The position numbers and the translations under genes are program-made. The notes under the pieces are model-generated. The model saw only the letters and a list, made by a program, of their open reading frames with translations. It searched no databases and was not told the DNA's origin. From positions 177,066-241,065 of the forward strand of contig CALKUP010000002.1 of assembly GCA_937996685.1 (NCBI GenBank): a stretch of 64,000 bases of DNA, in the 5' to 3' direction. This stretch comes from an uncultured bacterium (lineage in GTDB: Bacteria; Patescibacteriota; Patescibacteriia; UBA9570; XYC2-FULL-38-9). Below, in pieces: positions 4,983-60,350 of the stretch (within the stretch, counting starts at the first letter, position 1; every line of letters starts with the position of its first letter).

Positions 4983-4994
4983 TAATTTGATTCT

Positions 4995-6353: not shown

Positions 6354-6986
6354 ATGATAGAGAAGATTATTCGTCGAATTGCAGGCCCGCTGACAGTTGT
6401 TGCGACGGTGATTTTTCTTGGGGCCATGCCGTTTTTGTATCAAGAGAATCATGATAATCACATTTTTCGCACGGTGATTTCTTTTTTGTGCGCGTTCTCA
6501 ATCGCCGGTTTGTGGATTGCGCTGACGTGGTCCATTAAAAAAGACCGTGTCGCATTTCAAGATGCTGCGAGCATGCAGTTGATTTGGATTTTCGCGCTCG
6601 CGAGTAATGGCTTTGGTGCAATTGGGTTGTATTATATTTGGTTTTATTATGACTTGGTCATACATTTTATTAATCCGTTGCTTGCGACCGAATTTTTGTT
6701 TTTCTTATTTCATTATTGGTGGAAGCAGGAGCCAGATTTTTGGCAAATGATTCGGTTTATTTTTATTGCGATTGGCTTGGTGTTGTTATGGGAGTGGTAT
6801 GAAGCAATTTTGGATTTTCTTCTTGGAACGTCAATGGTTGGGCAGGCAGGCGAGGCGAATGATACGCTAACAGACATTATGGCAGGGATTCTAGGTGTGT
6901 TGGTTGGGGTTGTGTTATACAACCGCCCAAAATGGTTCTGGTTTTCATATCAGCAGTCTGAGCCAAAAAAAGACCTCTCAGTTTGA
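6354..6986 (+). CDS. hypothetical polytopic membrane protein
   Basis: 210 aa, 5-6 hydrophobic helices, W/F-rich; start adjacent to hexokinase stop. Confidence 0.45.
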   Translation: MIEKIIRRIAGPLTVVATVIFLGAMPFLYQENHDNHIFRTVISFLCAFSIAGLWIALTWSIKKDRVAFQDAASMQLIWIFALASNGFGAIGLYYIWFYYDLVIHFINPLLATEFLFFLFHYWWKQEPDFWQMIRFIFIAIGLVLLWEWYEAILDFLLGTSMVGQAGEANDTLTDIMAGILGVLVGVVLYNRPKWFWFSYQQSEPKKDLSV

Positions 6987-7039
6987 CCAGGTCGGCTATT
7001 TTTGGCATACTAGACGGGTAATTTTATCCTATTTTTATT

Positions 7040-8341
7040 ATGAATATTGTTGTTGTTGGCACCGGCTATGTCGGCCTCGTGTCTGGGGCGTGTCTCGCTG
7101 AAATCAATCATACTGTCACTTGTATTGATATTGATGAACAAAAAATTGAACGGTTGCGGCAAGGGATTATTCCAATCTATGAACCAGGCCTCGACACTGT
7201 TGTGAAAACAAATGTTGCAGCTGGTCGTTTGCAATTTTCAACAGACCTCACAGCCGTGCTTGATGACGCTGATGCTGTGTTCATTGCTGTTGGGACGCCG
7301 CCAAAAGAAGATGGGAGCGCTGACTTGCGATTTGTGTATCAAGTGGCAGAAACGCTTGGTGCGAACCTCAAAAAATATACAGTCATTGTGAACAAATCAA
7401 CTGTTCCAGTTGGAACTGGCCGGGAAGTTGAGGAGATTATTCGCAAAACCTACAGCGGCGAATTTGATGTTGTGTCATGTCCAGAATTTTTACGTGAAGG
7501 TTCAGCGGTGAAGGATTTTATGAATCCAGACAGAATCGTTATTGGTGCTCGAAATGATCGAGCGGCAAAAGTAATCTTAGATGTCTTCGCGCCAACAAAA
7601 GGCGAAAAGGTTGTGACATCTGTTGAAAGTGCTGAGCTGATTAAATATGCATCGAATGCATTTTTGGCAACGAAGATTTCTTTCATTAATGAGATCGCGC
7701 AAATCTGTGAACGCACGGGCGCGGATATTGAAGAAGTGGCGTATGGCGTCGGACTTGATGGTCGCATTGGACCGCGTTTCTTGCACGCTGGTATCGGCTG
7801 GGGCGGTTCGTGCTTTCCGAAAGATGTGCACGCCCTTGATCAAATTGGTGGTGAGCATGGCTACGATTTCAAATTATTGAAAGCGGTGATTGAAGTAAAT
7901 AATTTTCAACGAGAGCACATGGTGCAACGCATGAAAGATCATTTTGGCGGAAACTTGCACGGCAAAAAGATTGGTGTCTTGGGTCTCGCGTTTAAAGCCA
8001 ATACGGATGATGTTCGCGAATCAGCCGCTATTGATATTGTGAAGTTATTAGCAGCTGCTGGAGCTGATGTGACAGCCTTTGATTATCACGCAACAAATAA
8101 TGCAAAAGCGGAATTGAAAGATGTTGCTCTTGCATACGCAGAAGATGTGTATGATGTTGCAACAGGCGCTGACGCTGTGATTATTGCGGCTGAGTGGCCA
8201 GAATTCCGTGAGCTTGATTGGAGTCAGATTAAACAAACTATGAATACACCCGTGGTATTTGATGGTCGTAACTTATTAAAACCGTCTCGAATGCGTGATG
8301 AACTTGGGTTTACGTATATCGCTGTTGGTCGTCCTGAATAA
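7040..8341 (+). CDS. ugd: UDP-glucose 6-dehydrogenase
   Basis: N-terminal Rossmann VVVGTGYVGLVSGACLAE, catalytic GGSCFPKDV; 433 aa. Confidence 0.8.
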   Translation: MNIVVVGTGYVGLVSGACLAEINHTVTCIDIDEQKIERLRQGIIPIYEPGLDTVVKTNVAAGRLQFSTDLTAVLDDADAVFIAVGTPPKEDGSADLRFVYQVAETLGANLKKYTVIVNKSTVPVGTGREVEEIIRKTYSGEFDVVSCPEFLREGSAVKDFMNPDRIVIGARNDRAAKVILDVFAPTKGEKVVTSVESAELIKYASNAFLATKISFINEIAQICERTGADIEEVAYGVGLDGRIGPRFLHAGIGWGGSCFPKDVHALDQIGGEHGYDFKLLKAVIEVNNFQREHMVQRMKDHFGGNLHGKKIGVLGLAFKANTDDVRESAAIDIVKLLAAAGADVTAFDYHATNNAKAELKDVALAYAEDVYDVATGADAVIIAAEWPEFRELDWSQIKQTMNTPVVFDGRNLLKPSRMRDELGFTYIAVGRPE

Positions 8342-17102: not shown

Positions 17103-18812
17103 ATGACAAAAAAGACGAAATTGCGTATTACCGCACTATCCATTCTGCTGCTCGCTATTGGGGCTGGTTATCTAGCGTATCCAAAGGGACCTGCAATTAG
17201 CCTTGGTTCATTTCAACGCTCCGGAAATGTTCAACTTGGCCTTGATTTACAAGGTGGGGCGCAGTTGCTCTATCAAGCTGACATGTCAAATGTTCCAGAA
17301 GCTGATCGTACTGATTCATTAAATGGTGTGCGTGATGTTATTGAACAGCGCATTAATGCATTTGGTGTCGGCGAACCTGTAATTCAAACAGTTCGCTCGG
17401 GTAATGATTATCGCTTAAATGTTGAGCTGCCGGGTATTACAGATGTGACTGCTGCGGCGAAAAAAATTGGAGAAACCCCATTACTCGAATTTAAAACAGA
17501 AGGACCAGAAGTGGTGTATACAGAAGAGCAAAAAGCTGCAATTCGTAAACAAAACGATGAAAATAAAAAAACAGCCGAAGACGTATTAAAGCGTGTTCGT
17601 TCCGGTGAGTCATTTGATGATTTAGCGAAGCAATATTCACAAGACCCGGGATCAAAGGATGCGGGTGGTGATTTAGGTGAGGCACAAGAAGGAACCTATG
17701 TTGAGCCATTTAATGAAGTTGTTTTTAGTAAAGCAACCCCAGGCGAGGTCTATCCAGAGCTGGTTGAAACAACCTTTGGATATCATATTGTTCGGGTTGA
17801 TGAGCGCACTGAAGCTGCGACAAATGAAGTAGCTCCAGGAACTGACGCAACAAACACAGCGACAACCGAAGGAAAAAAAGCCAAGGTACATCACATTTTA
17901 CTGACAAAACAGTCTGAAGAGCCGGTGAGTACTGGTCCGAATTATGTTGCGACCAACTTGACTGGCAAACAACTTGATCGAGCATCGGTAGTTCTTGATC
18001 AAACAACAGGATTGCCAACAGTCTCATTGAATTTTGATTCAGAAGGTAAAGAGTTGTTTGCAAAAATTACAAAAGAAAACGTGAACAAAACAATTGCTAT
18101 TTACCTCGATGGGCAAATTTTGTCCGCGCCAACAGTGCAGCAAGAAATCTCAACGGGGCAGGCGATTATTTCTGGTAGCTTCTCACTTGATGAAGCCAAG
18201 CAATTAACACAGCGCTTGAATGCTGGTGCGCTACCTGTGCCAGTGTCGCTGATTAGTCAGCAGCAAGTCGGGCCAACACTGGGTCAAGAATCGATTGAAC
18301 GAAGCTTATTTGCTGGGGTTGTTGGTTTAATCGCGCTCGGTATTTTTATGATCGTCTATTATCGATTGCCAGGGCTTATTGCGATGGTTGCGTTAGTGTT
18401 GTATTCCATTCTTGTGCTTGTGGTGTTTAAATTAGTTCCAGTGACTCTCACCCTTGCTGGTATTGCTGGTTTTGTCTTGTCTATCGGAATGGCGGTTGAT
18501 GCCAATGTCTTGATTTTTGAGCGCATGAAAGAAGAGTTGCATCGCGGTAAAACAGTCAAGCAAGCAATTGACGACGGATTTGATCGAGCATGGCTGTCTA
18601 TTCGTGATTCCAATGCATCTTCTTTAATGACCTGCTTGATTTTATACTGGTTCGGTTCATCGATTATTCGCGGCTTTGCGATCACTCTTGCAATTGGTGT
18701 CCTTGTCTCAATGTTTACAGCAGTGAATATTTCTCGAACTCTCTTAAAATTATTGCCAGTGAAAAATTCTTGGTGGTTTGGTGTCGCTCCTTTCAATAAC
18801 GAAAATGACTAA
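17103..18812 (+). CDS. secD: protein translocase subunit SecD with embedded parvulin-type (PpiC) PPIase domain
   Basis: SecD N-terminal TM and LDLQGG, C-terminal 6-TM block (AVDANVLIFERMKEE); internal parvulin signature SFDDLAKQYSQDPGSKDAGGDLGE...TTFGYHIVRV. Confidence 0.75.
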   Translation: MTKKTKLRITALSILLLAIGAGYLAYPKGPAISLGSFQRSGNVQLGLDLQGGAQLLYQADMSNVPEADRTDSLNGVRDVIEQRINAFGVGEPVIQTVRSGNDYRLNVELPGITDVTAAAKKIGETPLLEFKTEGPEVVYTEEQKAAIRKQNDENKKTAEDVLKRVRSGESFDDLAKQYSQDPGSKDAGGDLGEAQEGTYVEPFNEVVFSKATPGEVYPELVETTFGYHIVRVDERTEAATNEVAPGTDATNTATTEGKKAKVHHILLTKQSEEPVSTGPNYVATNLTGKQLDRASVVLDQTTGLPTVSLNFDSEGKELFAKITKENVNKTIAIYLDGQILSAPTVQQEISTGQAIISGSFSLDEAKQLTQRLNAGALPVPVSLISQQQVGPTLGQESIERSLFAGVVGLIALGIFMIVYYRLPGLIAMVALVLYSILVLVVFKLVPVTLTLAGIAGFVLSIGMAVDANVLIFERMKEELHRGKTVKQAIDDGFDRAWLSIRDSNASSLMTCLILYWFGSSIIRGFAITLAIGVLVSMFTAVNISRTLLKLLPVKNSWWFGVAPFNNEND

Positions 18813-23218: not shown

Positions 23219-25921
23219 ATGCAAGACGAACAACAAACAAACACAAACACCAATCCACCTATTCCAGAAATGCCCTCAACGGTGAACTGGAATGAAATGC
23301 CAAATACGGTTACGTATTTTGCGCAAACAAATTTTCGTGGGGAAGCGCGTAAATTTGGAATCAAGCGTGATGATCGCCGCCGCCACATGTATGTGATCGG
23401 TAAAACTGGTATGGGGAAATCCACCATGCTTGAAAACATGATCATTCAAGATATTGAAAATGGTGAAGGGCTCGCAGTGATTGATCCGCATGGAGATCTT
23501 ATTGAAAAGGTGATTGACTTTGTTCCTGAGCATCGTATTAAAGATGTTATTTATTTTAACCCAGCCGATTTTCATTTTCCGATTGCGTTTAATATTGTCG
23601 AGCAAGTTGATGATGAATATAAAAATTTAATCGCTAATGGTTTGGTTGGTGTCTTTAAAAAGATTTGGGCAGATTCTTGGGGACCACGGTTGGAGTATAT
23701 TTTGATCAATTGTATTTTGTCTTTGTTGGATTATCCGGGCGCAACACTCCTTGATGTGAATCGTATTTTAGTTGATCCAGCGTATCGAAAAAAGGTGATC
23801 AAAAAAATCAAAGACCCGATTGTGCGGCAATTTTGGGTGAATGAATATAATAATTACAGTGAAAAATTTCGCAGTGAAGCGATTGCTCCAATTCAAAATA
23901 AGGTTGGACAATTTTTAAGTTCTTCATTGATTCGTAATATTGTTGGGCAAGAGCGATCAACCATTGATGTGCGTAAAGAAATGGACGCCGGTAAAATCAT
24001 TTTGATGAATTTATCAAAAGGTCGTATTGGTGAAGAAAATGCAGCTTTGCTTGGTGCGATGATGATTACGCGTATTCAACTTGCTGCGATGAGTCGGGTT
24101 GATATTCCAGAATCGCAACGTCGTGATTTCTTTTTGTATGTTGATGAGTTTCAAAACTTTTCAACGGAATCATTTGCGTCGATTTTATCTGAGGCACGTA
24201 AATATCGTTTAAATATCACAATGGCTCACCAATATATTGAGCAGTTGTCAGATGAGGTAAAGGCTGCGGTATTCGGAAACGTTGGAACAATGGTGTCGTT
24301 CCGCGTGGGAAGCGTTGACGCAGAAGAGTTGGAAAAAGAATTTCAACCAACCTTCATGCAAGAAGATATTGTGAAGTTGCCGTCGTTCCATGTTTATATG
24401 CGCTTGATGATTGACGGTGTGGCGAGTGATCCGTTTTCCGCAACAACGCTTGCGCCAATTTCAAACCCATCGCATTTAAAAGATGTGATTATTGAAAATT
24501 CCCGAAACACATATGCATCAGACCGCAAAGAAGTGGAATATGCAATTAATTTGTGGGCCGCGGTTGATGACGAGCAAACCCAAAAAATTAAAGCAGATAA
24601 AGAAAAAGCAGACGCGCGCGCAAGTGAGCCTGAGGTAGAAGAGGTCACGCAAGAATTAGACGAAGATGGTATTGTGCAAAAACCAAAAAATGGCATTCCA
24701 CTTCCAGCGGCAGCTGCTGCGCCAGCAACGACAGATTGGGGATTTGGTGGTTCTGTTCAAGGTGTGTCTCCGATACGGCCACTTGAAGAGGCGCCGGCTC
24801 CAGTCGCAGATGCAGAGCCAGTAATGCGATGGACTGTTGAAGAGTCGAATGAAGATGCTTCGGTTGTTGAAACAGCGCCTGTAAACGTGTTGAATGATGT
24901 CGCGCCCGCTTCTGTTGATGCTGACGATGTGTTTACGGGTGTTGACTTTTTGAGTGCGTTGCAAGGTGCGGAAGAGGTTCTTGATATGCCAACGCCTCCT
25001 CCAGTTGTTGCTCCTCAGTCATTACCTGTTGCTCAAAAACAAGAAGCGATGCCAACAGCATTTGATGATATATTGCGTGATGCATTTTCAGATGTTCCAG
25101 TTGAGCGTGAATCTCTGGCAGCAGAAAAGACTCCTGCCGCTCCTGTGAGTTCACAGCCACGGGCTGCAACCCCAAAACCACGAACAGTGACAGAGGCACC
25201 TCAAAAATCAGACGCAGCGCCAAGAGAACCGCGCTTTGTTCCAAATCATGCGGAAGACAAAGCTGACACCCGAAGACCGGATCAACGACCACAACCAGGA
25301 CAACGAGCGGGGTCTGCTTCAGGTTCGAGTTCAAGAAGTGCGCAAGGAACAGCTACTGCTCCAACGCAAGCAACTTCAGCCGGACCTGCTGGGCAAGTTG
25401 TTTCAAGTGAAGAAAAGCGTAAGCGCAAACGTAAGCGCAAGCGAAAACCAGACGACACTCGAACACCAGATCAACGACCGCCTCAGTCACAAGGTGGTGG
25501 AAGTGGGTCAGGTGCGGGAGGTTCTCGATCAACAATGCCGAGCGAGCCTCGTCAATCAAATAATACAAATACTCCCGCTGCACAAAAACCAGCTGTGCAT
25601 CAACCATTTAAAGATGCGTTTGCGAGCTTGAAAAAAGAGTTGCCTGAAGCAAACTCTGTTGCAAGTCCAGCTACTGCAGCGCCGGCGCGTGCGCAAACAC
25701 CTCGTGCAGATGACGATGGTCCAATTGGATTAGATCCTGTTGTTGTAAAAGCCGCTCCTGTTCAGCGGGTAGTCCAAACCTCTCCTGCGCAGCTACGTCC
25801 GATTCAGCCTGTAGAGCGGCCTGTGTCGCGGCCACAACAGCCGATGCAACCGCAGCCTGTGACACGACAACAGCAAGCACCGCAAACAATGCAGCCAGGT
25901 CAGCCAGTGACATTTGAATAA
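23219..25921 (+). CDS. type IV coupling protein-like P-loop ATPase (TraD/TraG/VirD4 family, TraG-D_C motif) with ~400-aa disordered tail
   Basis: Walker A VIGKTGMGKST, Walker B FFLYVDEFQNF, TraG-D_C-like ITMAHQYIEQL...GNVGTMVSFRVGS; no TM segment; C-terminal P/A/Q-rich region contains KRKRKRKRKRKRKP. Confidence 0.55.
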   Translation: MQDEQQTNTNTNPPIPEMPSTVNWNEMPNTVTYFAQTNFRGEARKFGIKRDDRRRHMYVIGKTGMGKSTMLENMIIQDIENGEGLAVIDPHGDLIEKVIDFVPEHRIKDVIYFNPADFHFPIAFNIVEQVDDEYKNLIANGLVGVFKKIWADSWGPRLEYILINCILSLLDYPGATLLDVNRILVDPAYRKKVIKKIKDPIVRQFWVNEYNNYSEKFRSEAIAPIQNKVGQFLSSSLIRNIVGQERSTIDVRKEMDAGKIILMNLSKGRIGEENAALLGAMMITRIQLAAMSRVDIPESQRRDFFLYVDEFQNFSTESFASILSEARKYRLNITMAHQYIEQLSDEVKAAVFGNVGTMVSFRVGSVDAEELEKEFQPTFMQEDIVKLPSFHVYMRLMIDGVASDPFSATTLAPISNPSHLKDVIIENSRNTYASDRKEVEYAINLWAAVDDEQTQKIKADKEKADARASEPEVEEVTQELDEDGIVQKPKNGIPLPAAAAAPATTDWGFGGSVQGVSPIRPLEEAPAPVADAEPVMRWTVEESNEDASVVETAPVNVLNDVAPASVDADDVFTGVDFLSALQGAEEVLDMPTPPPVVAPQSLPVAQKQEAMPTAFDDILRDAFSDVPVERESLAAEKTPAAPVSSQPRAATPKPRTVTEAPQKSDAAPREPRFVPNHAEDKADTRRPDQRPQPGQRAGSASGSSSRSAQGTATAPTQATSAGPAGQVVSSEEKRKRKRKRKRKPDDTRTPDQRPPQSQGGGSGSGAGGSRSTMPSEPRQSNNTNTPAAQKPAVHQPFKDAFASLKKELPEANSVASPATAAPARAQTPRADDDGPIGLDPVVVKAAPVQRVVQTSPAQLRPIQPVERPVSRPQQPMQPQPVTRQQQAPQTMQPGQPVTFE

Positions 25922-31604: not shown

Positions 31605-31680
31605 GCCGTTTTAGCTCAGTCGGTAGAGCGTCACCATGGTAAGGTGGAGGTCTCGGGTTCGATCCCCGAAAACGGCTCCA
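31605..31680 (+). tRNA. tRNA-Thr (anticodon GGU)
   Basis: Cloverleaf: acceptor GCCGTTT/AAACGGC, D-arm GCTCagtcggtaGAGC, anticodon stem TCACC/GGTGG with loop AUGGUAA, T-arm TCGGG-TTCGATC-CCCGA, encoded CCA end. Confidence 0.85.
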
Positions 31681-31718
31681 ATTTTTTGAATAATGATTAA
31701 TTATTTTTCGGTTTTTAG

Positions 31719-31747
31719 TTGACAGAATATTGAAAATATGTTATTTT
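31719..31747 (+). promoter_or_regulatory. putative promoter TTGACA-N17-TATTTT driving the GC-rich unit downstream of tRNA-Thr
   Basis: -35 31719-24, -10 31742-47. Confidence 0.35.
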
Positions 31748-31885
31748 ATCACGTCAATCTGTTTTAGATTGACCGTGCAAAAAAAGGGGTGTCTTCATGC
31801 TGATTTCTTTACTGATCCTTCTTCTGGTTCAAGTCGAGCTGGGCTTGGGGTCCCGAAGGGTCCGGAAGCGATAGTGGGGCTGTGC

Positions 31886-32266
31886 ATGAACGGCGTCGTG
31901 GTGACGGCAAATAACGGAATGATGCCGCACGTGCCGATAGTTGACACTCCTCTGAACATCGACCTCATTGTGCCGGACGCAGTGTGTCCGTACGTGCTTC
32001 CTGTTGGCTATGCTATAGCCAAGTCAGAGGAGGAGGTTCCACGGCCTAGAATGGAAGCGCAAGAAGCGCGTCTCTGGTGGCTGGGGGACATCTTCCCTGT
32101 GAGTCTTTGCATGAGTCGGAAGGAGTCCTACACGCTTACGTGGAGCGCTGGAGACATCGTTGCGTTAAGTGGCCTCCTTGTCATTTGCGGCTACGGTTTC
32201 ATAGAGATTGTACGTCGCGTGAGAAGTGTGTGGCAGGTCATTCGTCACAGGCTCTCGAAAGCCTGA
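31886..32266 (+). CDS. hypothetical GC-rich protein (~126 aa), preceded by a 25-codon hydrophobic mini-ORF (31797-31874)
   Basis: Elevated GC3 in this frame (ccg/gtg/gac codons), GGGG SD-like run before ATG 31886, strong terminator 25 nt downstream; no domain recognised. Confidence 0.3.
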   Translation: MNGVVVTANNGMMPHVPIVDTPLNIDLIVPDAVCPYVLPVGYAIAKSEEEVPRPRMEAQEARLWWLGDIFPVSLCMSRKESYTLTWSAGDIVALSGLLVICGYGFIEIVRRVRSVWQVIRHRLSKA

Positions 32267-32290
32267 CGTATTCGCCGTGCACCCCCTCGT

Positions 32291-32331
32291 CCCCGTTTAG
32301 CGTCTTCATCGATGCGACGGGGCCTTTTTTT
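32291..32331 (+). terminator. rho-independent terminator (CCCCGT...ACGGGG + T7)
   Basis: CCCCGTttagcgtcttcatcgatgcgACGGGGCCTTTTTTT. Confidence 0.65.
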
Positions 32332-32526
32332 AATATTTATATATATGGATATAATTCAGCTCGCGCCAGACGCTGTTGCGAAATAACGCGCTAGTAATTT
32401 GTGCAATCGATATATATTTATTATACTTCTTTTATGAAATTCCTTTCAGCAGCTCAATCTACAACGACTACCGCCATTCATCTCATGGTTGGGTAGTTTT
32501 GTTTTGAACTTCGTTGAAAGTAAACT

Positions 32527-32552
32527 CGCCCCAATCATGGGGCGTTTTTGTT
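32527..32552 (+). terminator. rho-independent terminator (CGCCCC aatcat GGGGCG TTTTT)
   Basis: 6-bp GC stem followed by T-run; closes a ~120-nt unit that starts after the putative promoter TTGTGC-N17-TATACT (32393-32421). Confidence 0.5.
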
Positions 32553-32596
32553 GCCGTGAAAGTGGTAATAAAAAATCACAGGATAAGGAGTAGACA

Positions 32597-33094
32597 ATGT
32601 CTACTATTCCGTTGGCTTGTCTTGATCCGCAACGGTCGGATCGTGACGGTGTGATGGTGTCGATTCAATTTCAGCCGATGGGAGTGACCCTCAACGGCTG
32701 GAATTCACGCGGTTCTTACGTGGCGTACATCTTCGAAGATAATGAGTGGAATCCGATTCTGGCGCCTGTTCCGGATGGGTCTGGGCGTTATGCTGTCATC
32801 GGCGGGATGAGCTGGTTCGACGAAGACATGATCGCACTCGCGAACGGCAAAATGACTCAGGCGATTCCGCGTTCGCGTGCGTGGACCTTCTCTCATCAGT
32901 CGCCGTCGGAGATGTGTGAGTTGATGCGAGTCTACTTCCAGCGTCGCATTCTGCAGGCCGCGTCTGTGCGTCCGGGACTGCTTCCGTCGTACGCCGACAA
33001 CCGGCTGGCGAATCTGGACTACGCCGCCTTCATGAATGAGGCAAGCCGCTACCATGAGGCGGTGTACGCTTTCTGGAAGCAGTTCGAGGCGTGA
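32597..33094 (+). CDS. hypothetical protein (165 aa), GC-rich
   Basis: Strong SD AAGGAG 7 nt upstream of ATG; ~58% GC; no recognised domain. Confidence 0.45.
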   Translation: MSTIPLACLDPQRSDRDGVMVSIQFQPMGVTLNGWNSRGSYVAYIFEDNEWNPILAPVPDGSGRYAVIGGMSWFDEDMIALANGKMTQAIPRSRAWTFSHQSPSEMCELMRVYFQRRILQAASVRPGLLPSYADNRLANLDYAAFMNEASRYHEAVYAFWKQFEA

Positions 33095-33231
33095 TCCGTG
33101 ATTGAGAGGTGAGGAGGGAACGAGTTTGCTTGTGGTGATGAAAGTTGCCTTGAGTAAGCTCGTATTTTTTTATTTGATTTTTGGATAATCAAAACAGCTG
33201 AGAAGGTGAGCGCGAAATAAATATGAAGGGA

Positions 33232-34417
33232 TTATTGCGGCTTTTGAATATATTGATTTCGCATTTTAATAAATGCCGTGAACATTAAAATAAAGAGCGT
33301 GATGGTTGCTATCTGGAATGCGAGTTGTAGACCTCCTTTGTCTGCAATTCGACTAAAGATAAGAATGAGTACAGTTTCTGTAATGCTGACTGCAAAATTT
33401 TGAAGTGATATAACAGTCGTACGCTGTTCTGATGTGATGTGTGCATTCAGTTCATCGTTCAGTGTTACTCTCAACATCCAGTAGCCAATCTATAATAATC
33501 ATACTTATCGGCAGCCATACACCCTTTCCTATGCTCACAGTTATAAATCCAATAAGTATGATACACAGCATGCCGGCAATACTTTGCATGATTGTAAAAT
33601 ACCCATCAAGCCAATGTGCTATCTCTGAGGCGAGTCCAGACAATACACGAAGTACGGTATAAAAAAGACCGAAATATATAATATTTAGACCAGATAATTG
33701 AAGTAGTGGTTGCGCGTAGTCCCCAAAGATATACCAAAAGATTGTCACTACTGTGAATAAGAGAATTATTGAAGATACATACGGGATAGATCTGATCTGT
33801 CGAAAAGCTTCTCCAAGATGTCTGGAGAATTGTAGTTGAGGAGCAATAATAGTTTCTTCGGCTGTTTTTGGTGGCTCGGTGGTGAGGTATGCGGCAACGA
33901 ATGATATAGCAAAAAAAGCAACAGAAATAATAAATGGGAGCTTTTGATTATACTCATAGACAAGCGGAGTTATTGAAAGCACCGCAGCGCTTGTGAGCAG
34001 TGTTAGGAATGAGAGACGTCCACTTACTTTTTTGTATTCTTTTTTTCTATGAAGGTCAGTAAGTGTGTCATATAGCATTGCTTCTGTTGTGCCGGATAAA
34101 AACGCACCCCCAATGCCATAAAAGATTGCTGCAACCAAAAAGGGGACAAAGCCGTTGCCTATTGTTAATAATATGCCATAAATAATAGCAAAGGTTGATG
34201 CAAGGATGAGTGATAGGCGTTTCCCATATTTATCCGCAAAGATGCCTCCGGGAATTTCTGTGAGAATTGATGCTATGGTAGCTGCGGCTGCTATACATCC
34301 CAATTGAGTAAAGGAAATACTGTACGAAAGGATATACAGTGTGATAACCGGAAAAGCAAACCGCTTAATAAAAAAGCCGTGTAAAAAAAGGAGGGTGATG
34401 TTGCGTTGTAGTTTCAT
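33232..34417 (-). pseudogene. MFS transporter interrupted by a frameshift near 33452-33477
   Basis: 339-aa N-terminal part (10 TM, MFS-like) ends at 33452; an overlapping 81-aa ORF in another frame (33232-33477) encodes the last two TM helices. Confidence 0.5.
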
Positions 34418-34421
34418 TGGT

Positions 34422-35357
34422 TTATTGCAGTCCCGCTGTTGTATTTGTAATAATATCAAGCGAATCCGCAACGCCTCCCAATAACGGCTCTTTCATGTGT
34501 AGAGCAAGAATCGTTTTTGAATCGTGATCATCTCTCGTGATATCTGCAGTGAAGTCTTTTGTCCTCGCTTGGCCGTTCTGCGGCACAACGACAATTGCCG
34601 CTTCTTTCATTGAACCGTGATCACCTGGAGAGTCGCCAAAGTAAATCATTGCAGCATCTGTGCCAATTGCATCATGCAGCGCCGCTTCCTTTCCGCCGCC
34701 TTTTGGAAATATGTCAATTGAAGATGGTGCTTTTATCACAACAAAATCACCAGCCATGCCGCGGTCTTGTAGATATGACTCGACTTGTTCAAGGGCCGTA
34801 TCCGGATTGTGTCCTTCCGGCCACACCAATCCAATGCAGTGATGCAGTTTATATGCGCGCCAACCGTTTTCTATAAAACGCGTTTCAATGTCAGGCTTAA
34901 TCTGTAATAACGCTTCAGCATCTGTTGGTGTAATAGTGGAGGGAAATGTCTCGGCGTCTCCACGGACAATACTAAAACCACTTTCTGCAATAATGACCTC
35001 TGGTTCAATAGAAGGAAATAGGGTTTTTACTAAAGCGCGGACAAATTCGACGCTGCGTCCAGTGCTGAGCCCGAAATGAAAGCCTTGTGCGAGTGCTTTT
35101 TGAATGGCTGCTTGAATGCGGAGTACTGCTTCTTTGTTTTCTTCAAAATGCGCAGCGATGTTTTCCGGGGTGTGTTTGTGTTCAATAAAAATCCCATCAA
35201 CATCAAACAGCAGCCATGCGGGCTTTCCGTCTCTATTTTCCGGAGAAAGGCTTGTTTCGTGAAATAGCGCTTGCAGTGCTGCGGGAATTTGCCCAAGTTC
35301 ATCTTCAGGGATCGAGGGTTCAATACGTTTGCCTCGAAAATAGCTGTTTTCTATCAT
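34422..35357 (-). CDS. HAD-IIB (Cof/sucrose-phosphatase-like) hydrolase
   Basis: Motif I LLFDVDGIF, motif IV GDSPGDHGSMKEA; 311 aa. Confidence 0.55.
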   Translation of the reverse strand: MIENSYFRGKRIEPSIPEDELGQIPAALQALFHETSLSPENRDGKPAWLLFDVDGIFIEHKHTPENIAAHFEENKEAVLRIQAAIQKALAQGFHFGLSTGRSVEFVRALVKTLFPSIEPEVIIAESGFSIVRGDAETFPSTITPTDAEALLQIKPDIETRFIENGWRAYKLHHCIGLVWPEGHNPDTALEQVESYLQDRGMAGDFVVIKAPSSIDIFPKGGGKEAALHDAIGTDAAMIYFGDSPGDHGSMKEAAIVVVPQNGQARTKDFTADITRDDHDSKTILALHMKEPLLGGVADSLDIITNTTAGLQ

Positions 35358-35410
35358 GGTGTCAGTGTAGCATAATATCTAAATCATGATAAAATACTAA
35401 GATAAGAAAA

Positions 35411-35443
35411 GGGTTCCAGGTTCGAATCCCGACAACGGCTCCA
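35411..35443 (+). other. tRNA 3'-end fragment (T-loop plus acceptor 3' strand plus CCA), partial duplicate of the tRNA-Thr 3' end
   Basis: GGTTCGAATCCCGACAACGGCTCCA vs tRNA-Thr 3' end GGTTCGATCCCCGAAAACGGCTCCA (22/25 identical); no 5' half present. Confidence 0.6.
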
Positions 35444-36700: not shown

Positions 36701-36777
36701 GAGAAAGTGGCTTGAGTTTATATTTAACTCATGACAATCAAAAATATTATAAAAAATAATTCTTTAAATCGTTTATT

Positions 36778-37155
36778 TTATTTAACGTACATGAAAGATT
36801 GCGGTGGGTGTTGAATTTGAAAGTCTTGCTTTAAGCACAGGGGTTTATTATACCGTTCCACAAATTTTATTTTAATTGCATGTCCCTGGGACTTGCCTAA
36901 AAAATAACTATCAAAAAAACTTTTTGTAATACCAGAGTCTTCTTTGGTTTGTCTCCAAAGTTTCGTAGGCGATTCTGATATGACATTTTCAATTTCAAAT
37001 TCACCTATAACTTTTTGTACTGGATAAGATGCATACACTATCACCCTAGTTATTTCAGGATTTTTAAATAAAATTTTTCTAAACTCATATTTTTTTGACC
37101 CCTCAAAAATCTTTTCCGCGTATTCGGGTTTAATCGACAATAATACTTTCATCAC
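36778..37155 (-). CDS. ASCH (PUA-like) domain protein
   Basis: MMKVLLSIKPEYAEKIFEGSKKYEFRK start typical of the ASCH beta-barrel; ~30% GC; 5' end overlaps the 3' end of the upstream PIN-fusion gene by 26 nt. Confidence 0.55.
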   Translation of the reverse strand: MMKVLLSIKPEYAEKIFEGSKKYEFRKILFKNPEITRVIVYASYPVQKVIGEFEIENVISESPTKLWRQTKEDSGITKSFFDSYFLGKSQGHAIKIKFVERYNKPLCLKQDFQIQHPPQSFMYVK

Positions 37156-38653
37156 TTTTGGATTCTTTTATTATTTTCATGAAATGATCCCAAGGAATTT
37201 TTTGAAAACCCCTTGGCATATTTGTGACACTTTGTATTATACCTAAATCAATTAATTTAGCTAGATTGATTCGTCTAGGTAAAGAGTACGCGTATAGAAA
37301 ATTTAATACAAATGGTCTATATTTTGGATTTTTATTCCACATTTTTACTAGTCCTGCTTGATCAAAAACTGAGCGTTTTCTGCAGGCACGTATAAATTCA
37401 ACAGGGTCTTTAATGTTGTCGATGACAGAGTCTACGATTCCAATCGTGGTTACGACACCGTCTCTAAAGCCACCATTTCTATAGAAGACAATAATATCAC
37501 CGGGCTTCATAGTTCGCGTTGGAGCGTGTGATATATAAGGCTTACTAATGGCGTTTCTATGTGGTTGTTGTTCAATAAAACCAAGGGGGGACTCGGTCTT
37601 TAAAATTGAATCGGGAAAAAATTCTGTATGATAGACCTGATTTATGCAGGTAAAGTATACATCGGCATTCTTTTTAACGAAGGGGTAGCTAGATTTTGGT
37701 TCGTCTAGAGATGGTTGAGTATTTATGAATTTTCTAACATATACTCGTTCATCACCATTGGTGGTTTTTTTTATTCCCCAGAACTTAAAGCCGTACTGTT
37801 CTAGTAAGAAGATAAGACTCCCGTGGGCATGTGTTTTTTCAAATATAGTCACATAAATCTCATCCACTTTATATTGTAACGCATTATCAAAAATAATTTT
37901 AATGAATCGTTCTCCAATTTTTAAACCGGTAACTTGTACTTTTAAAGTGCCGATCTTTAGTCTTTTTTTTGGTAAAAATACAGGTGTTATATTGTGATAA
38001 CTTTCGGATTGAGATTCTAGTTTTATATAAAGAAAGGCCTCAAGGTTCCCGTCATCTTCATATACATACGCTGTTTCTTCAGACTTCGAGTTAAACCATT
38101 CGTCAAACTCCTCGTAATCTGCTCTAAAACTATCAAAAAAAGTATCTTGTAGATTGATCTCTCCAAATAATTTCTTTTGTACAGATTTTACTCTGTAATC
38201 AACTAGACTAGGATTTTCCGTTATTATTTTTTCAAGTAGTTTTTCGACAGTGTAAATTTTATCATCGATATTCAAGAGTGCGGCTTTTTTGTGTATCTTT
38301 AGGTCATCCGTAATCAAGCAATCAACGCGATTGCTGTAGACCTCATTTAGAAGGGTTGAGTCATTGATGTCATTTTGATTTTTGTCATGTTCAGCAGAGA
38401 TTTTTTGCACTTCTGGGCTAATCTGCGCTGGCGACTGAATCGTATAATAATTATCAGACTTGACTTGCATTGCCTGCACGACCTTGGGGTCAGCATGGTT
38501 TGATAATTCAGACCTAGTTATTGGATGGATGCACTTTTTATAGCCAAGTTGGTCGAGCCAATAAAAAAGACGGCCAATATCTTCATGTCTCACATATCTA
38601 CCCTCGCGACTCACAATAACATTTGTATCAAGTAATATCTTTATATTTGTCAT
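37130..38653 (-). CDS. PIN-domain protein fused to a GNAT-like central region and a C-terminal EVE/PUA-like domain
   Basis: N-terminal PIN (ILLDTNVIV...DCLITDDLKIHKKA acidic residues); central LKIGERFIKIIFDNA...LLEQYGFKFWG resembles a GNAT fold; C-terminal KPGDIIVFYRNGG...GVVTTIGIVDSV resembles EVE/PUA; ~30% GC. Confidence 0.45.
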   Translation of the reverse strand: MTNIKILLDTNVIVSREGRYVRHEDIGRLFYWLDQLGYKKCIHPITRSELSNHADPKVVQAMQVKSDNYYTIQSPAQISPEVQKISAEHDKNQNDINDSTLLNEVYSNRVDCLITDDLKIHKKAALLNIDDKIYTVEKLLEKIITENPSLVDYRVKSVQKKLFGEINLQDTFFDSFRADYEEFDEWFNSKSEETAYVYEDDGNLEAFLYIKLESQSESYHNITPVFLPKKRLKIGTLKVQVTGLKIGERFIKIIFDNALQYKVDEIYVTIFEKTHAHGSLIFLLEQYGFKFWGIKKTTNGDERVYVRKFINTQPSLDEPKSSYPFVKKNADVYFTCINQVYHTEFFPDSILKTESPLGFIEQQPHRNAISKPYISHAPTRTMKPGDIIVFYRNGGFRDGVVTTIGIVDSVIDNIKDPVEFIRACRKRSVFDQAGLVKMWNKNPKYRPFVLNFLYAYSLPRRINLAKLIDLGIIQSVTNMPRGFQKIPWDHFMKIIKESKSDESIIVD

Positions 38654-38827
38654 ATATCAAACACTAGCAAAAAAAGAATATAATTCCTAGTTATGGCATG
38701 GAATATCCCATATAATTGGGTCAGTAGTATATCATTTTAACTATTATAAAAGTATCGGAACTTTTTCTATTATATATATTCAAATACGCCTCTTATAATT
38801 CCCAAGAGAATAGTGTAGTCTATAGAC

Positions 38828-40899: not shown

Positions 40900-41169
40900 A
40901 TGACCAACCGAGATTGCCCGCCGCATCTTGGCACTGGAGTCACTCCAAAAGACTCGACGTGTCATGATCATGCGAGCGCTGCTCAACAGGGCTTTCATAA
41001 CCTGCATTGCCGGCTCATCGGCTGTCCGTACGCAAAACCAGGTCTTGAGCGTCACGGAGACACCCTGATTATCAAGCCGCGGAATTGGTTAGAGGACTTG
41101 CTGTTGAAGCTTGATCCTTTGATCAATGCCGCCCGTCGTTTCCACGTGTTCATTCGGAGGAAGTCATGA
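40900..41169 (+). CDS. hypothetical Cys/His-rich small protein, GC-rich
   Basis: GGAAAGG SD before ATG; stop overlaps next gene start (ATGA); ~58% GC. Confidence 0.35.
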   Translation: MTNRDCPPHLGTGVTPKDSTCHDHASAAQQGFHNLHCRLIGCPYAKPGLERHGDTLIIKPRNWLEDLLLKLDPLINAARRFHVFIRRKS

Positions 41170-41462
41170 AGATAGCGGAGATTGCGGCGCTTCTGAGCGA
41201 TCCTGCCACCCGCCGGTTGCTGGCAGAGGGCATTGGGATCATCAAGATCTTGAAGGACAACAAACGCCTCACACCAGAGGCTGTGCAAGCCGTGGTTGAC
41301 GGCATTGAGCCGCTCAAGAGGCTTGCGGCGTCTCAGGTGCATGCACGAGAGATCATGGAGAGCATCGACCTCCTTGTGAAGCTCTTGATGAAGCCTGGAG
41401 GACTTGCAGCCTTGCGGCACTTCGCGAGGTCTTTCGTCGATCTCATCGAAAACCCTCTGTGA
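41166..41462 (+). CDS. hypothetical small helical protein, GC-rich
   Basis: Translationally coupled (ATGA overlap) to the 40900 ORF. Confidence 0.35.
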   Translation: MKIAEIAALLSDPATRRLLAEGIGIIKILKDNKRLTPEAVQAVVDGIEPLKRLAASQVHAREIMESIDLLVKLLMKPGGLAALRHFARSFVDLIENPL

Positions 41463-41515
41463 TGAACACGTTCGTCTGAGGGTTCGTTTTTTTATCAGAA
41501 AGAAATGAGGCAAAT

Positions 41516-41545
41516 AAAAAACCCGCATTGCTGCGGATTTTTTAT
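41516..41545. terminator. bidirectional rho-independent terminator
   Basis: AAAAAACCCGCattgcTGCGGATTTTTTAT; lies between cspA (minus) and the GC-rich pair (plus). Confidence 0.6.
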
Positions 41546-58068: not shown

Positions 58069-58917
58069 TTGTATATGAAAAAAGAAATTATAGAATCTCT
58101 TACAAATAACTTTGAATCGTACGCTAATAAAACTGATGAAGGCGTTGAATTTTGGTTGGCTCGAGATTTACAACAGTTATTAGGATATGGTAAATGGGAT
58201 AACTTTTTGAAAGTCATCGCTAAGGCAAAGATAGCCTGCGAAACAACAGGTCATGTAGTTGCCGATCATTTTGCCGACGCCGGGAAAACGATCGGCATGC
58301 CTAAAGGTGCTCAAAAAGAGATATTAGATATAATGCTTACTCGATATGCGTGCTATTTGATCGCTCAAAATGGTGATCCGCGTAAAGAAGAGGTTTCGTT
58401 CGCACAAAACTATTTTGCACTCCAAACAAGGAAGTTAGAAATCATTGAAAAAAGAATTCAGGATTCCGAGAGATTGTTAGCGCGCCATAAGTTAGTTGAA
58501 ACCGAGAAAATGCTTTCCAGTGTTATTTTTCAACAAACAGGAAGTAATAAAAATTTTGGTTTAATACGAAGTAAGGGTGATAAGGCATTATTTGGTTACA
58601 GTACAGTACAAATGAAAAATAAGCTTGGTGTTCCAAAAACAAGACCGTTGTCAGATTTTCAGCCAACAATTATTTTAAAAGCTAAAGATTTTGCGACTGA
58701 AATTACAATTTTTAATACAAAAGAAAAGGGCTTGGCCACCGAGGAAGGAATTTCTGAAGAGCATGTCACGAACAACAGAAGTGTCAGAAAAACCCTCATA
58801 TCACGTGGTATTTACCCTGAAAATCTGCCCCCAGAAGAGGACATTAAAAAGCTTGAGCGCAAAATGAAGTCTGAGGAGAAAAAGGGATTAAAGAAACCAG
58901 AGACGCTTGATGTGTAA
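58069..58917 (+). CDS. DNA-damage-inducible protein D-like (Bro-N domain) protein
   Basis: GVEFWLARDLQQLLGYGKWDNFLKVIAKAKIACE matches the DinD/Bro-N N-terminal signature. Confidence 0.5.
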   Translation: MYMKKEIIESLTNNFESYANKTDEGVEFWLARDLQQLLGYGKWDNFLKVIAKAKIACETTGHVVADHFADAGKTIGMPKGAQKEILDIMLTRYACYLIAQNGDPRKEEVSFAQNYFALQTRKLEIIEKRIQDSERLLARHKLVETEKMLSSVIFQQTGSNKNFGLIRSKGDKALFGYSTVQMKNKLGVPKTRPLSDFQPTIILKAKDFATEITIFNTKEKGLATEEGISEEHVTNNRSVRKTLISRGIYPENLPPEEDIKKLERKMKSEEKKGLKKPETLDV

Positions 58918-58950
58918 GTGTTAATTTTGAATAAGTAAAAAGATTAGATT

Positions 58951-60350
58951 ATGACAGCCCAAGAAACACAAATAATTACCTTTGATTGTAAAAACTTATT
59001 CCCAGTTTTTGAAGAGCATTTAAAAATTGAAAATAATTCACGGGTATTTTTTTTCCGCAAAATATGGGACAGGGAAAACATATTTTTTAAACCAGTTTTT
59101 TCAAGACAGTGAAGACTATGAGGTTTTTCATCTATATCCGGTAGATTACCAGATCGCATCAAATGAAAATATTATTGATTTTTTAAAAGCTGATATTTTA
59201 GTTGAGCTTCAGAAAAAACACAACGGGATTATTGAGCCTAATGATTATAGTAACTTTCTCGATCTTCAAAGGCTTTTATATGTCTGGAGCAAAGACCATG
59301 TTGTTGATATTTCCAAATTTATTGGGAGTCATGTGTCACGATTAGCATTATTAGGCAAGCCATTTAAAGATGTTGTAGATTTAACAGAGAGTTTTTTGAG
59401 CTTTAAAAAACAAATTGAATCTGGAGACAAAGGCCGTGTTGAGAATTTTTTAAAGGATTTAAAAAACAAAAAGATTTCTGAAGCTGATCCAATGAGTGAT
59501 TTGTTAAAAAGCAAAATTGAATTGGTTAAAGAAAATAAAAAAAGTGTTTTAGTACTAGATGATTTAGACAGAATAGACCCACAACATGTTTTTCGTATGC
59601 TCAACTGTTTTTCTGCTCATTTTGACTCAAGCAATAATGAGCTCCCAAATAAGTTTGGTTTTGATGTTATTGTTTTGGTTGGCGATTTTGCAAACTTAAA
59701 ATCTATTTTTCACCATATGTATGGTAGTGAAACTGATTTTAATGGTTATTTTAATAAATTCTTCTCACGTGAAATTTTTCAGTTTAATAATAATCAGATA
59801 ATTTTCGATAGCTTAAGTCAAGTTATTTCAGCTTTTCCACACCACTCAACTTACAATGATGGCTTTATTAAAAAATGGATTTATTTTTATTTTAGCAGAA
59901 CTTTTATTAAAAAATGGCTTAGATTTAAATATTATTAGCACTAGACAAATTTTAAAAGGGGTCGGCTTTAAAATTCCCAGACTTTTAAGAACGTATAATT
60001 ATCCTCAAAGTGAACGACGAGTGTTAGATATTGACATGGTTCTTGATATTTTGGAAATAATATGCGGAGGTCTAAAGATAGACCTAATTGACTTTTTAGG
60101 TAAAATAAAAAATGCACATTTCAATAATGATGATATTCGTCGATTGCGTGAGTATTATATTAAGCCACTATTAAAAAAAGCAATAAAAAATTTAACAACT
60201 CATTCAAATGTCCCAACTCGTTGGCAAGGGTATGTTATTTATTTTAATGATCAAGGTGATTTACAAAGCGTCACGCAATCTAATTCGGGATCAAAATACG
60301 AGCATTTATTCCTTGACTTGCTCATCGATCATATTAAACAAAATCGTTAA
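58951..60350 (+). pseudogene. KAP-family P-loop NTPase disrupted by two homopolymer frameshifts
   Basis: Walker A SAKYGTGKTYFL and KAP-type Walker B VLVLDDLDRIDP; reading frame shifts at T8 run (59046-59053) and at an A/T run near 59870-59900, splitting the gene into three ORFs; ~28% GC. Confidence 0.55.

Follow-up and report, generated by a model that had tools for sequence, protein, structure and literature searches.

Two overlapping genes on the minus strand of a 64,000-nucleotide (nt) stretch of Patescibacteria chromosome (contig CALKUP010000002.1; the whole stretch is called the window below) form a cassette that is, with essential certainty, a (PIN)-GNAT-EVE plus ASCH module of the PDC-M11 family, the PIN-fused long form of the pair annotated elsewhere as GevT and GevA. 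The pair is a new copy of a catalogued, widespread candidate toxin-antitoxin or anti-phage module whose family is already known, and it occupies, as horizontally acquired cargo, a variable slot in the chromosome of a bacterium of the candidate phyla radiation (CPR). Its function is likely that of a conflict module of the toxin-antitoxin or abortive-infection type. The best explanation overall, in which we place somewhat more belief than doubt, joins this identity and acquisition to a conflict module with an RNA-directed effector countered by ASCH. The features of the cassette, as read from the open reading frame (ORF) list, predicted folds and synteny, are as follows (GC, guanine plus cytosine content; aa, amino acids).

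36704-38785, no strand: replaced (foreign) segment of 2,082 bp, GC 0.333, delimited by synteny with the related genome L084
38654-38785, minus: cargo-borne 5' region upstream of the PIN-GNAT-EVE start, within the non-syntenic segment; presumed promoter region
37130-38653, minus: PIN-GNAT-EVE gene, 507 aa, ATG start (ORF list; PADLOC PDC-M11A, PIN-fused long form of GevT)
38204-38653, minus: PIN (VapC-like) nuclease domain, residues 1-150 (predicted fold)
37721-38188, minus: GNAT acetyltransferase domain, residues 156-311 (predicted fold)
37559-37720, minus: conserved linker, residues 312-365 (invariant columns, low model confidence)
37133-37558, minus: EVE / PUA-like barrel, residues 366-507, predicted modified-base reader (predicted fold)
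37130-37152, minus: dual-coding overlap of 23 nt (sequence read in both frames)
36778-37152, minus: ASCH partner gene, 124 aa, ATG at 37152 (PADLOC PDC-M11B; GevA homolog)
36704-36777, minus: cargo-borne 3' region beyond the ASCH stop with a short GAGTT...AACTC hairpin, within the non-syntenic segment

Both overlapping minus-strand ORFs reported in an initial annotation of this DNA are present in the ORF list, and their overlap stands, although its length is 23 nt from the ATG at 37152; the 26 nt given originally assumes a GTG one codon upstream. That alternative start (37155) would yield a 125 aa ASCH protein (36778-37155), whereas the public gene call, an exact product match in the public protein collection, is the 124 aa form from ATG 37152. 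The overlap (...GATGAAAGTATTATTGTCGATTAA) encodes DESIIVD and the stop in the large-gene frame and MKVLLSIK in the ASCH frame, a dual-coding arrangement that, read from sequence, implies translational coupling of the two genes. A promoter and terminator scan of the cassette region gave nothing above shuffled controls, so no promoter was identified and no terminator called.

Identity is carried by matches along nearly the whole of both proteins. The 507 aa protein matches PADLOC PDC-M11A (PDLC04422) at E 2.1e-198, residues 5-506 aligning with positions 2-500 of the 501-position profile, and its partner, adjacent and on the same strand, matches PDC-M11B (PDLC04425) over its full length at E 1.7e-52. 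The PDCs are 145 untested phage defence candidates nominated by 'guilt-by-embedding' within BREX, DISARM or type I restriction-modification (RM) loci (Payne et al., preprint 10.1101/2024.01.29.577857). PDC-M11 has the same two components as the window pair and no structural difference from it; the window copy, unlike the nominating loci, is not embedded in an RM, BREX or DISARM system. In GenBank record PV340567.1 (Escherichia phage PhiR47_2, lambdoid) a PIN-less homolog and its ASCH neighbor, located between cI and kil, are labelled 'GevT toxin' and 'GevA antitoxin', with the gene order and the 23 nt overlap of the window pair. GevA is 50% identical to the window ASCH (E 3e-49); GevT, phage-borne, 357 aa long and devoid of PIN, is 39% identical to residues 163-506, the GNAT-EVE part (E 5e-59).

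The claim of the initial annotation that this combination had not been described as a system does not survive these records (PADLOC PDC-M11; PV340567.1, GevT/GevA) or the literature (PMC7641849, PMC5499597). A (PIN)-GNAT-EVE plus ASCH operon was described by Bell et al. 2020, who credit Iyer et al. 2013 and report that almost all such operons contain ASCH and often an AAA_17 ATPase (PMC7641849); PIN_15 and PIN_17 families were defined around the same fusions by Matelska et al. 2017 (PMC5499597). These prior descriptions share with the window the domain order PIN, GNAT, EVE, the adjacent ASCH and a sporadic occurrence in bacteria and archaea. They differ in the optional AAA_17-type gene and type I RM neighbors, both lacking around the window copy, and in the helix-turn-helix (HTH)-fused ASCH of some operons, where the window ASCH is stand-alone and its host a CPR bacterium. 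What is new here is the pairing in 79 of 80 loci, the modal overlap of 23 nt, the invariant PIN and ASCH residues, the ASCH fusions, the placement of ZmASCH in the partner clade, and the slot swap, each set out below.

Pairing and domain architecture across the family

Homologs of the 507 aa protein number more than 4,500 by word-index matching, and an exhaustive profile search returned 2,438 clusters at 50% identity, 806 of them with E <1e-30. The nearest relatives are 54-56% identical (54% for the best match among GTDB species representatives) and come from Bacteroidota, Planctomycetota, Verrucomicrobiota, Desulfobacterota, Bacillota and 10 archaeal metagenome-assembled genomes, a taxonomic scatter that has the pattern of wide horizontal spread. 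We surveyed the neighborhoods of PIN-GNAT-EVE homologs in 80 genome loci (L004-L083) from many bacterial phyla and archaeal metagenome-assembled genomes, the survey by which the initial annotation had proposed to examine pairing with ASCH. In 79 of the 80 the large gene is followed, on its own strand, by an ASCH homolog, in one case with ~1 kb between the genes, and the lone locus without it has just 387 nt of contig left beyond the large gene. Overlap length is 23 nt in 49 of 77 loci, the modal value, and 4 nt in 14 of 77. A ~177 aa P-loop protein (Walker A motif GGIHGVGKST) directly precedes the cassette in 23 of 80 loci; the Mesorhizobium copy is a RefSeq 'AAA family ATPase', and the protein probably corresponds to the AAA_17 ATPase that Bell et al. 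mention. A search of the window for a homolog of this ATPase found none. In 8 of 80 loci HsdM is encoded no more than 6 kb from the cassette, mostly on its upstream side; no RM genes were found near the window cassette.

Three length classes appear in the exhaustive search: GNAT-EVE of ~350 aa, PIN-GNAT-EVE of ~500 aa, and a ~620 aa class (13 of the top 150 cluster representatives) in which a divergent ASCH is fused to the N-terminus of PIN-GNAT-EVE, as in P0381, P0386, P0398 and P0409. In one further representative, P0367 (632 aa), a GevA-type ASCH is fused at the C-terminus, possibly by read-through of the overlap. Of the fused sequences, three were read (P0381, P0386, P0367), and all show the GxKxxExR motif. 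Because ASCH occurs fused to the large protein, the tie between ASCH and effector has support independent of gene order. An origin of the three-domain protein in misassembly or artefactual fusion is ruled out, as the full-length architecture recurs in hundreds of clusters from unrelated phyla.

Pfam matches on the 507 aa protein, to PIN_3 and EVE, are both sub-threshold, for which reason fold tests were used to define its domains; across 33 homologs the same families are matched in 31 of 33 (PIN_3) and 22 of 33 (EVE). A profile of the 33-member alignment had no match among all PDB sequences at E up to 10. The AlphaFold2 model computed from the 33-sequence alignment has a mean predicted local distance difference test score (pLDDT) of 82.7 and consists of three folded blocks with low-confidence linkers between them, and the PIN, GNAT and EVE folds read into the sequence by the initial annotation are all confirmed by structure prediction together with fold search. 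The structural neighbors of the PIN block are VapC tRNases and RNases, not DNA nucleases, and its acidic residues D9, E49, D98 and D117 are invariant in the 33-sequence alignment; these residues and the PUA-like barrel, the two features on which that domain reading had been staked, are both found. The top 50 Foldseek matches of the GNAT domain in PDB are all GNAT acetyltransferases, its fold neighbors being N-alpha-acetyltransferases, and the glycine-rich segment between beta4 and alpha3 is invariant across the same alignment (R231, K233, G235, and on to G243, G247, E248, R249). Judged by these invariant active-site residues, both PIN and GNAT are predicted to be enzymatically active.

Residues 312-507, modelled separately, gave a predicted template-modelling score (pTM) of 0.80. 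In Foldseek order their neighbors are EVE proteins first (2ar1, THYN1 with 5-methylcytosine (5mC) DNA, 1zce), followed by McrB-N, ASCH and YTH, and the DNA reader VcaM4I is also among the fold neighbors of the EVE domain. The linker that joins GNAT to EVE carries the invariant residues Y341-H342-T343, P347-D348-S349 and E354-S355, with R366-N367 following, while residues 349-365 have pLDDT <50 in both models; it is a conserved element, perhaps a substrate-binding or regulatory loop.

The ASCH partner just passes the Pfam ASCH gathering score (22.8 vs 21.2). Residues K20, E23 and R25 of its octapeptide are invariant in 78 of 78 partners, as are Y40, P44, G50, W66, Y83, P117 and Q118, and S119 is retained in 74 of 78. 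Its best and only match among PDB sequences (phmmer, E up to 10) is ZmASCH of Zymomonas mobilis (PDB 5GUQ), at E 4.5e-9. The two have in common the GxKxxEFR motif and the functional ZmASCH residues Tyr47 and Ser128, which correspond to Y40 and S119 of the partner; they are ~30% identical, and ZmASCH Lys53 aligns one position off (Q46-K47). In plasmid records, for example those of Ensifer, two Sinorhizobium species, Mesorhizobium, Paracoccus and E. coli, the genes for the closest relatives of ZmASCH directly adjoin (PIN-)GNAT-EVE genes, which places ZmASCH within the partner clade. ZmASCH is a Mg-dependent single-stranded RNA (ssRNA) nuclease (PMC5615036) and strips N4-acetylcytidine (ac4C) from E. 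coli tRNA in vitro (2026 preprint 10.64898/2026.02.27.708502). The same preprint reports Glu-type ('GKER') ASCH proteins, ZmASCH included, as tRNA ac4C deacetylases in vitro, and finds the octapeptide Lys and Glu/Thr essential in other ASCH proteins, being required in TthASCH and EOLA1 (10.64898/2026.02.27.708502); the conserved Lys and Glu of the Glu-type deacetylases are K20 and E23 of the partners. On these residues the ASCH partner looks like an RNA-acting enzyme. Derivation of the partner from the fused PUA-like domain, by recent duplication or as a decoy, was rejected, at an hhalign probability <1%.

A variable slot between conserved flanks

The closest available relative is L084 (GCA_964492735.1, CAZBLE010000013.1), whose Pif1 is 80% identical to that of the window and whose gene order is syntenic: DUF1801, methyltransferase, cargo, SOUL, and further on DUF1801 and Pif1. 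By blastn, 87% identity to L084 extends up to window position 36703, three bases beyond the methyltransferase stop, and homology resumes at ~38782-38790 with 80% identity, just upstream of SOUL. The segment thus replaced contains solely the two-gene cassette with its own 5' and 3' untranslated DNA; at its edges a search for terminal direct or inverted repeats returned only short AT-rich chance matches. In L084 the same slot is occupied by a 2.85 kb segment with a plus-strand gene (4780-7452) for an 890 aa protein of PHP and AAA_15/AAA_21 (ABC-ATPase) domains, which matches PADLOC Ppl at E 4.5e-28 and PDC-M49A and AriA more weakly. Because two different defence-type cargos occupy one slot between conserved flanks, this Patescibacteria lineage appears to have a defence hotspot at the methyltransferase-SOUL junction. 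In the more distant relative L085 (Pif1 67% identical) there is no synteny upstream of Pif1.

This swap is stronger evidence of acquisition than the dip in GC. The AT-rich block of the initial annotation is there, at 33% against 42-44% rather than ~30% against ~45%: GC is 0.333 in the segment, 0.42 in the 2 kb flanks and 0.439 over the whole window (standard deviation 0.041 in 2,082 bp windows), and 1.8% of windows of 2,082 bp are as low. Two neighboring genes have GC at third codon positions (GC3) as low as that of the cassette, so that composition alone is weak evidence of acquisition. The gene annotations given for the surroundings (two DUF1801 genes, methyltransferase, SOUL, Pif1) hold; their description as an accessory region does not, as those genes are syntenic in L084 and just the two-gene block is swapped. 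Two marker proteins assign the window to Patescibacteria: its threonyl-tRNA synthetase is ~60% identical to Magasanikbacteria, Komeilibacteria and Uhrbacteria sequences, and its Pif1 shares 62-63% identity with those of Kerfeldbacteria. Pif1 is thus a gene conserved in the lineage and not accessory cargo.

The initial annotation had also placed the cassette just outside a tRNA-fragment boundary, and the boundary is borne out by a degenerate copy of the tRNA-Thr 3' end at 35419-35443; the DUF1801 and methyltransferase genes between this repeat and the cassette are syntenic in L084 and leave the cassette outside it. Membership of the cassette in a tRNA-Thr-linked insertion was considered and rejected, since the 35419-35443 repeat bounds a separate upstream insertion, 31681-35418. 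That insertion, of ~3.7 kb, lies beside tRNA-Thr (31605-31680) and ends at the degenerate 25 nt tRNA 3'-end copy; it carries two small high-GC ORFs (31730-32266 and 32597-33094; GC ~0.53) together with genes for an MFS transporter and a HAD hydrolase; an integrase was not seen. At the equivalent spot L084 has an exact 49 nt tRNA 3' fragment and no intact tRNA.

The family is mobile elsewhere as well. Homologs of the cassette are found on phages, including the lambda immunity region and psiM100, and on plasmids, one of them beside cas3''; the coliphage matches are without a PIN domain, and PHROG families exist for both cassette proteins. In the Methanothermobacter prophage psiM100 (L087, NC_002628.3, 8233-10078), ORFD is a 492 aa PIN-GNAT-EVE protein whose gene overlaps the 129 aa ORF5 by 23 nt. 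The start of ORFD falls within the annotated 'inserted fragment IFa', whose end is inside ORFD, and the annotation of ORF5 notes its similarity to psiM2 ORF5; it seems that this archaeal virus captured all or part of the module.

Proposed function and its alternatives

Fold, family and synteny evidence together support the initial annotation in its view of the cassette as a horizontally acquired toxin or defence module. In the mechanism we propose, the large protein would be an RNA-directed effector, most plausibly tRNA-directed, whose EVE barrel would dock on a modified nucleotide, whose GNAT would transfer an acetyl group to an amine of the bound substrate (the alpha-amine of aminoacyl-tRNA or an exocyclic base amine), and whose VapC-like PIN would cleave RNA. 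ASCH, produced in fixed ratio through translational coupling, would keep the effector harmless in uninfected cells, most likely by acting as an RNA-directed hydrolase of its own (removing the acetyl mark or processing RNA) and not simply as a labile protein that passively blocks it; infection by a phage would upset this balance, and translation would halt. RNA, and most plausibly tRNA, is suggested as the target because the PIN is VapC-like, the GNAT has alpha-amine acetyltransferases as fold neighbors, the EVE is a predicted modified-base reader and the partner belongs to a clade of RNase and tRNA-deacetylase activity. N-alpha-acetyltransferase chemistry is also that of TacT and AtaT, toxins that acetylate aminoacyl-tRNA.

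Several points weigh against this mechanism. A toxin gene in first position is atypical for type II toxin-antitoxin systems, and the ASCH-fused forms speak against a classical labile antitoxin. The fold neighbors of the modelled GNAT do not discriminate among protein, aminoacyl-tRNA and base amines as substrate. ZmASCH was inactive on free ac4C and caused no significant decrease of ac4C in vivo (10.64898/2026.02.27.708502). Bell et al. 2020 call none of these modules characterised (PMC7641849); our literature searches found no experiments on the (PIN)-GNAT-EVE plus ASCH family, post-2020 GNAT-EVE work included, and no paper behind the GevT and GevA names, which are GenBank annotation only. No known defence gene adjoins the cassette in the window, and type I RM genes adjoin it in only ~10% of relatives; a PADLOC scan of 10 other large window ORFs gave just generic methyltransferase and ATPase similarities.

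A narrower reading, which we regard as tentative and on balance doubtful, is an acetylation-based writer/eraser toxin-antitoxin immune module, in which an EVE-guided GNAT would acetylate RNA, the PIN would exploit or accompany the mark, and ASCH would erase it until infection. If this is true, it would give ASCH enzymes of the ZmASCH type a natural biological role for the first time and would be the first defence system based on RNA acetylation. The two analogies by which the initial annotation arrived at a similar idea are weak. YqfB has a Thr octapeptide (Lys21/Thr24/Arg26) where the partner is of Glu type (K20/E23/R25, GxKxxExR); phmmer against PDB at E up to 10 returned no YqfB match to the partner, and the PUA-like models reach the YqfB-related 9KYF by fold only at E ~2. 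TmcA/NAT10 has helicase/ATPase and tRNA-binding modules, whereas the window GNAT is without these, is fused only to PIN and EVE, and has N-alpha-acetyltransferases as fold neighbors. YqfB and TmcA have in common with the cassette just the ASCH superfamily and GNAT superfamily folds, respectively. The writer/eraser logic is nonetheless possible, given the ac4C deacetylation reported for Glu-type ASCH proteins (10.64898/2026.02.27.708502).

Compared with established toxin-antitoxin systems, the cassette shares a VapC-like PIN with a complete acidic site with VapBC and an N-alpha-acetyltransferase-like GNAT with the GNAT-toxin type II systems, but fuses these two toxin-type domains together and adds a modified-base reader. 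Its partner is an enzyme-like ASCH encoded downstream, in contrast to the upstream RHH/AbrB-type antitoxins (RHH, ribbon-helix-helix) of type II systems. Where VapBC has a small upstream DNA-binding antitoxin of VapB type, the window has 132 bp of non-coding cargo DNA and then the divergent SOUL gene; where TacAT and AtaRT have an adjacent RHH-type antitoxin, ASCH is the sole partner. DarT/DarG is a phage defence that couples a writer toxin with an eraser antitoxin, by DNA ADP-ribosylation and a macrodomain eraser. Its likeness to the cassette would be by analogy and in the proposed logic only, a nucleic-acid-modifying toxin with a mark-removing enzyme, since folds and chemistry are unrelated and there is no homology.

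Among other explanations, a selfish addiction module, that is a toxin-antitoxin pair stabilising itself or its carrier mobile DNA with no anti-phage role, would account for the compact and apparently translationally coupled two-gene form, the toxin and antitoxin labels of the PV340567.1 annotation, the occurrence on plasmids and prophages, and the frequent position of the pair isolated among housekeeping genes and away from defence neighbors. We judge it unlikely: the sister genome L084 has a Ppl-like defence gene in the same slot, PDC-M11 was nominated through embedding in RM, BREX and DISARM systems, and the lambdoid phage copies sit in the immunity region between cI and kil. Lambda carries rexAB at that position. 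Many toxin-antitoxin systems prove to be defensive in any case, and the two readings are not exclusive. An RM-like system working by DNA base acetylation, as ascribed to Iyer et al. 2013 in the account of PMC7641849, would have the GNAT self-mark a DNA base, EVE and ASCH read the mark, and the PIN restrict unmarked or marked DNA. DNA readers among the EVE fold neighbors (THYN1-5mC DNA, McrB-N, VcaM4I), the HTH-ASCH and HsdS-ASCH fusions and type I RM neighborhoods of Bell et al. (PMC7641849), and the nearby HsdM genes in our survey would fit it, yet it appears improbable when the PIN is VapC-like with RNases and tRNases, not DNA nucleases, as structural neighbors, when ZmASCH, the member of the partner clade that has been characterised, is an ssRNA-cleaving enzyme that also acts on tRNA, and when most loci are without RM genes. 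Prokaryotes are not known to have an acetylated DNA base with a dedicated GNAT writer, which also counts against this proposal.

In the counter-toxin scheme of Bell et al. 2020 (PMC7641849) the roles are divided between host and virus, a phage GNAT-EVE poisoning the host by acetylating aminoacyl-tRNA and a host PIN-GNAT-EVE degrading the tRNAs so acetylated, with ASCH merely regulating expression by binding DNA. The same authors find the PIN-less forms typically in prophages and the PIN-bearing ones in cellular loci (PMC7641849), with which our PIN-less coliphage matches and the ~350 and ~500 aa length classes are consistent; the PIN-bearing form nevertheless also occurs in a prophage (psiM100 ORFD), and the PIN-less form is itself annotated as the toxin with ASCH as its antitoxin (PV340567.1). 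The ASCH partner and the overlap do not differ between the long and the short form, which suggests one shared mechanism, and the window ASCH has no HTH and is enzyme-like rather than repressor-like in its pocket residues, invariant across 78 partners, so that we give this scheme little credence. Least probable of all is a housekeeping RNA-modification pair, an acetyl writer and eraser tuning tRNA or rRNA outside any conflict. ASCH proteins have been reported as tRNA ac4C erasers (10.64898/2026.02.27.708502), and fusions of GNAT with PUA-like domains are found among RNA-modification enzymes (background in Bell et al., PMC7641849), but against it stand the scattered occurrence of the pair in both bacteria and archaea at 50% identity or more, which points to horizontal transfer, the presence/absence polymorphism between sister genomes, the carriage on phages and plasmids, the fused VapC-like nuclease with an intact active site, and the AT-richness of the segment relative to its host.

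The conflict module with an RNA-directed effector therefore remains the reading we prefer. The window itself is not exceptional, and its value is as a pointer to an understudied family that is spread through bacteria, archaea, phages and plasmids and has been flagged four times by comparative genomics. The enzyme-like ASCH pocket, the fusions, the Ppl-like swap and the clade shared with ZmASCH, the single ASCH protein with both an RNase and a tRNA-deacetylase activity on record, make the mechanism directly testable, and the cassette illustrates that a reduced Patescibacteria genome can carry a candidate immune or toxin-antitoxin module.

Other features of the window

Between the DUF1801 and cold-shock genes, window 41000-41530 is a local GC peak (0.54) whose only ORFs (41052-41528, minus; 41166-41462, plus) are without Pfam matches and which gave no Rfam family. 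With GC ~0.31, 58069-60350 is the window's most AT-rich stretch; next to thrS, it codes for a protein with a Bro-N domain (58069-58917) and for a P-loop NTPase of the KAP family (59027-59938), and may represent further cargo of a mobile or defence-related kind. Surrounded by genes that match no family, 23219-25921 encodes a 900 aa protein with a TrwB/VirD4-type coupling-protein domain (Pfam TrwB_AAD_bind, E 5e-12), which may belong to a type IV secretion or DNA-uptake machinery. At 17103-18812 a SecD homolog contains an inserted PpiC/PrsA-type peptidyl-prolyl isomerase segment at residues ~140-260 (NCBIfam).

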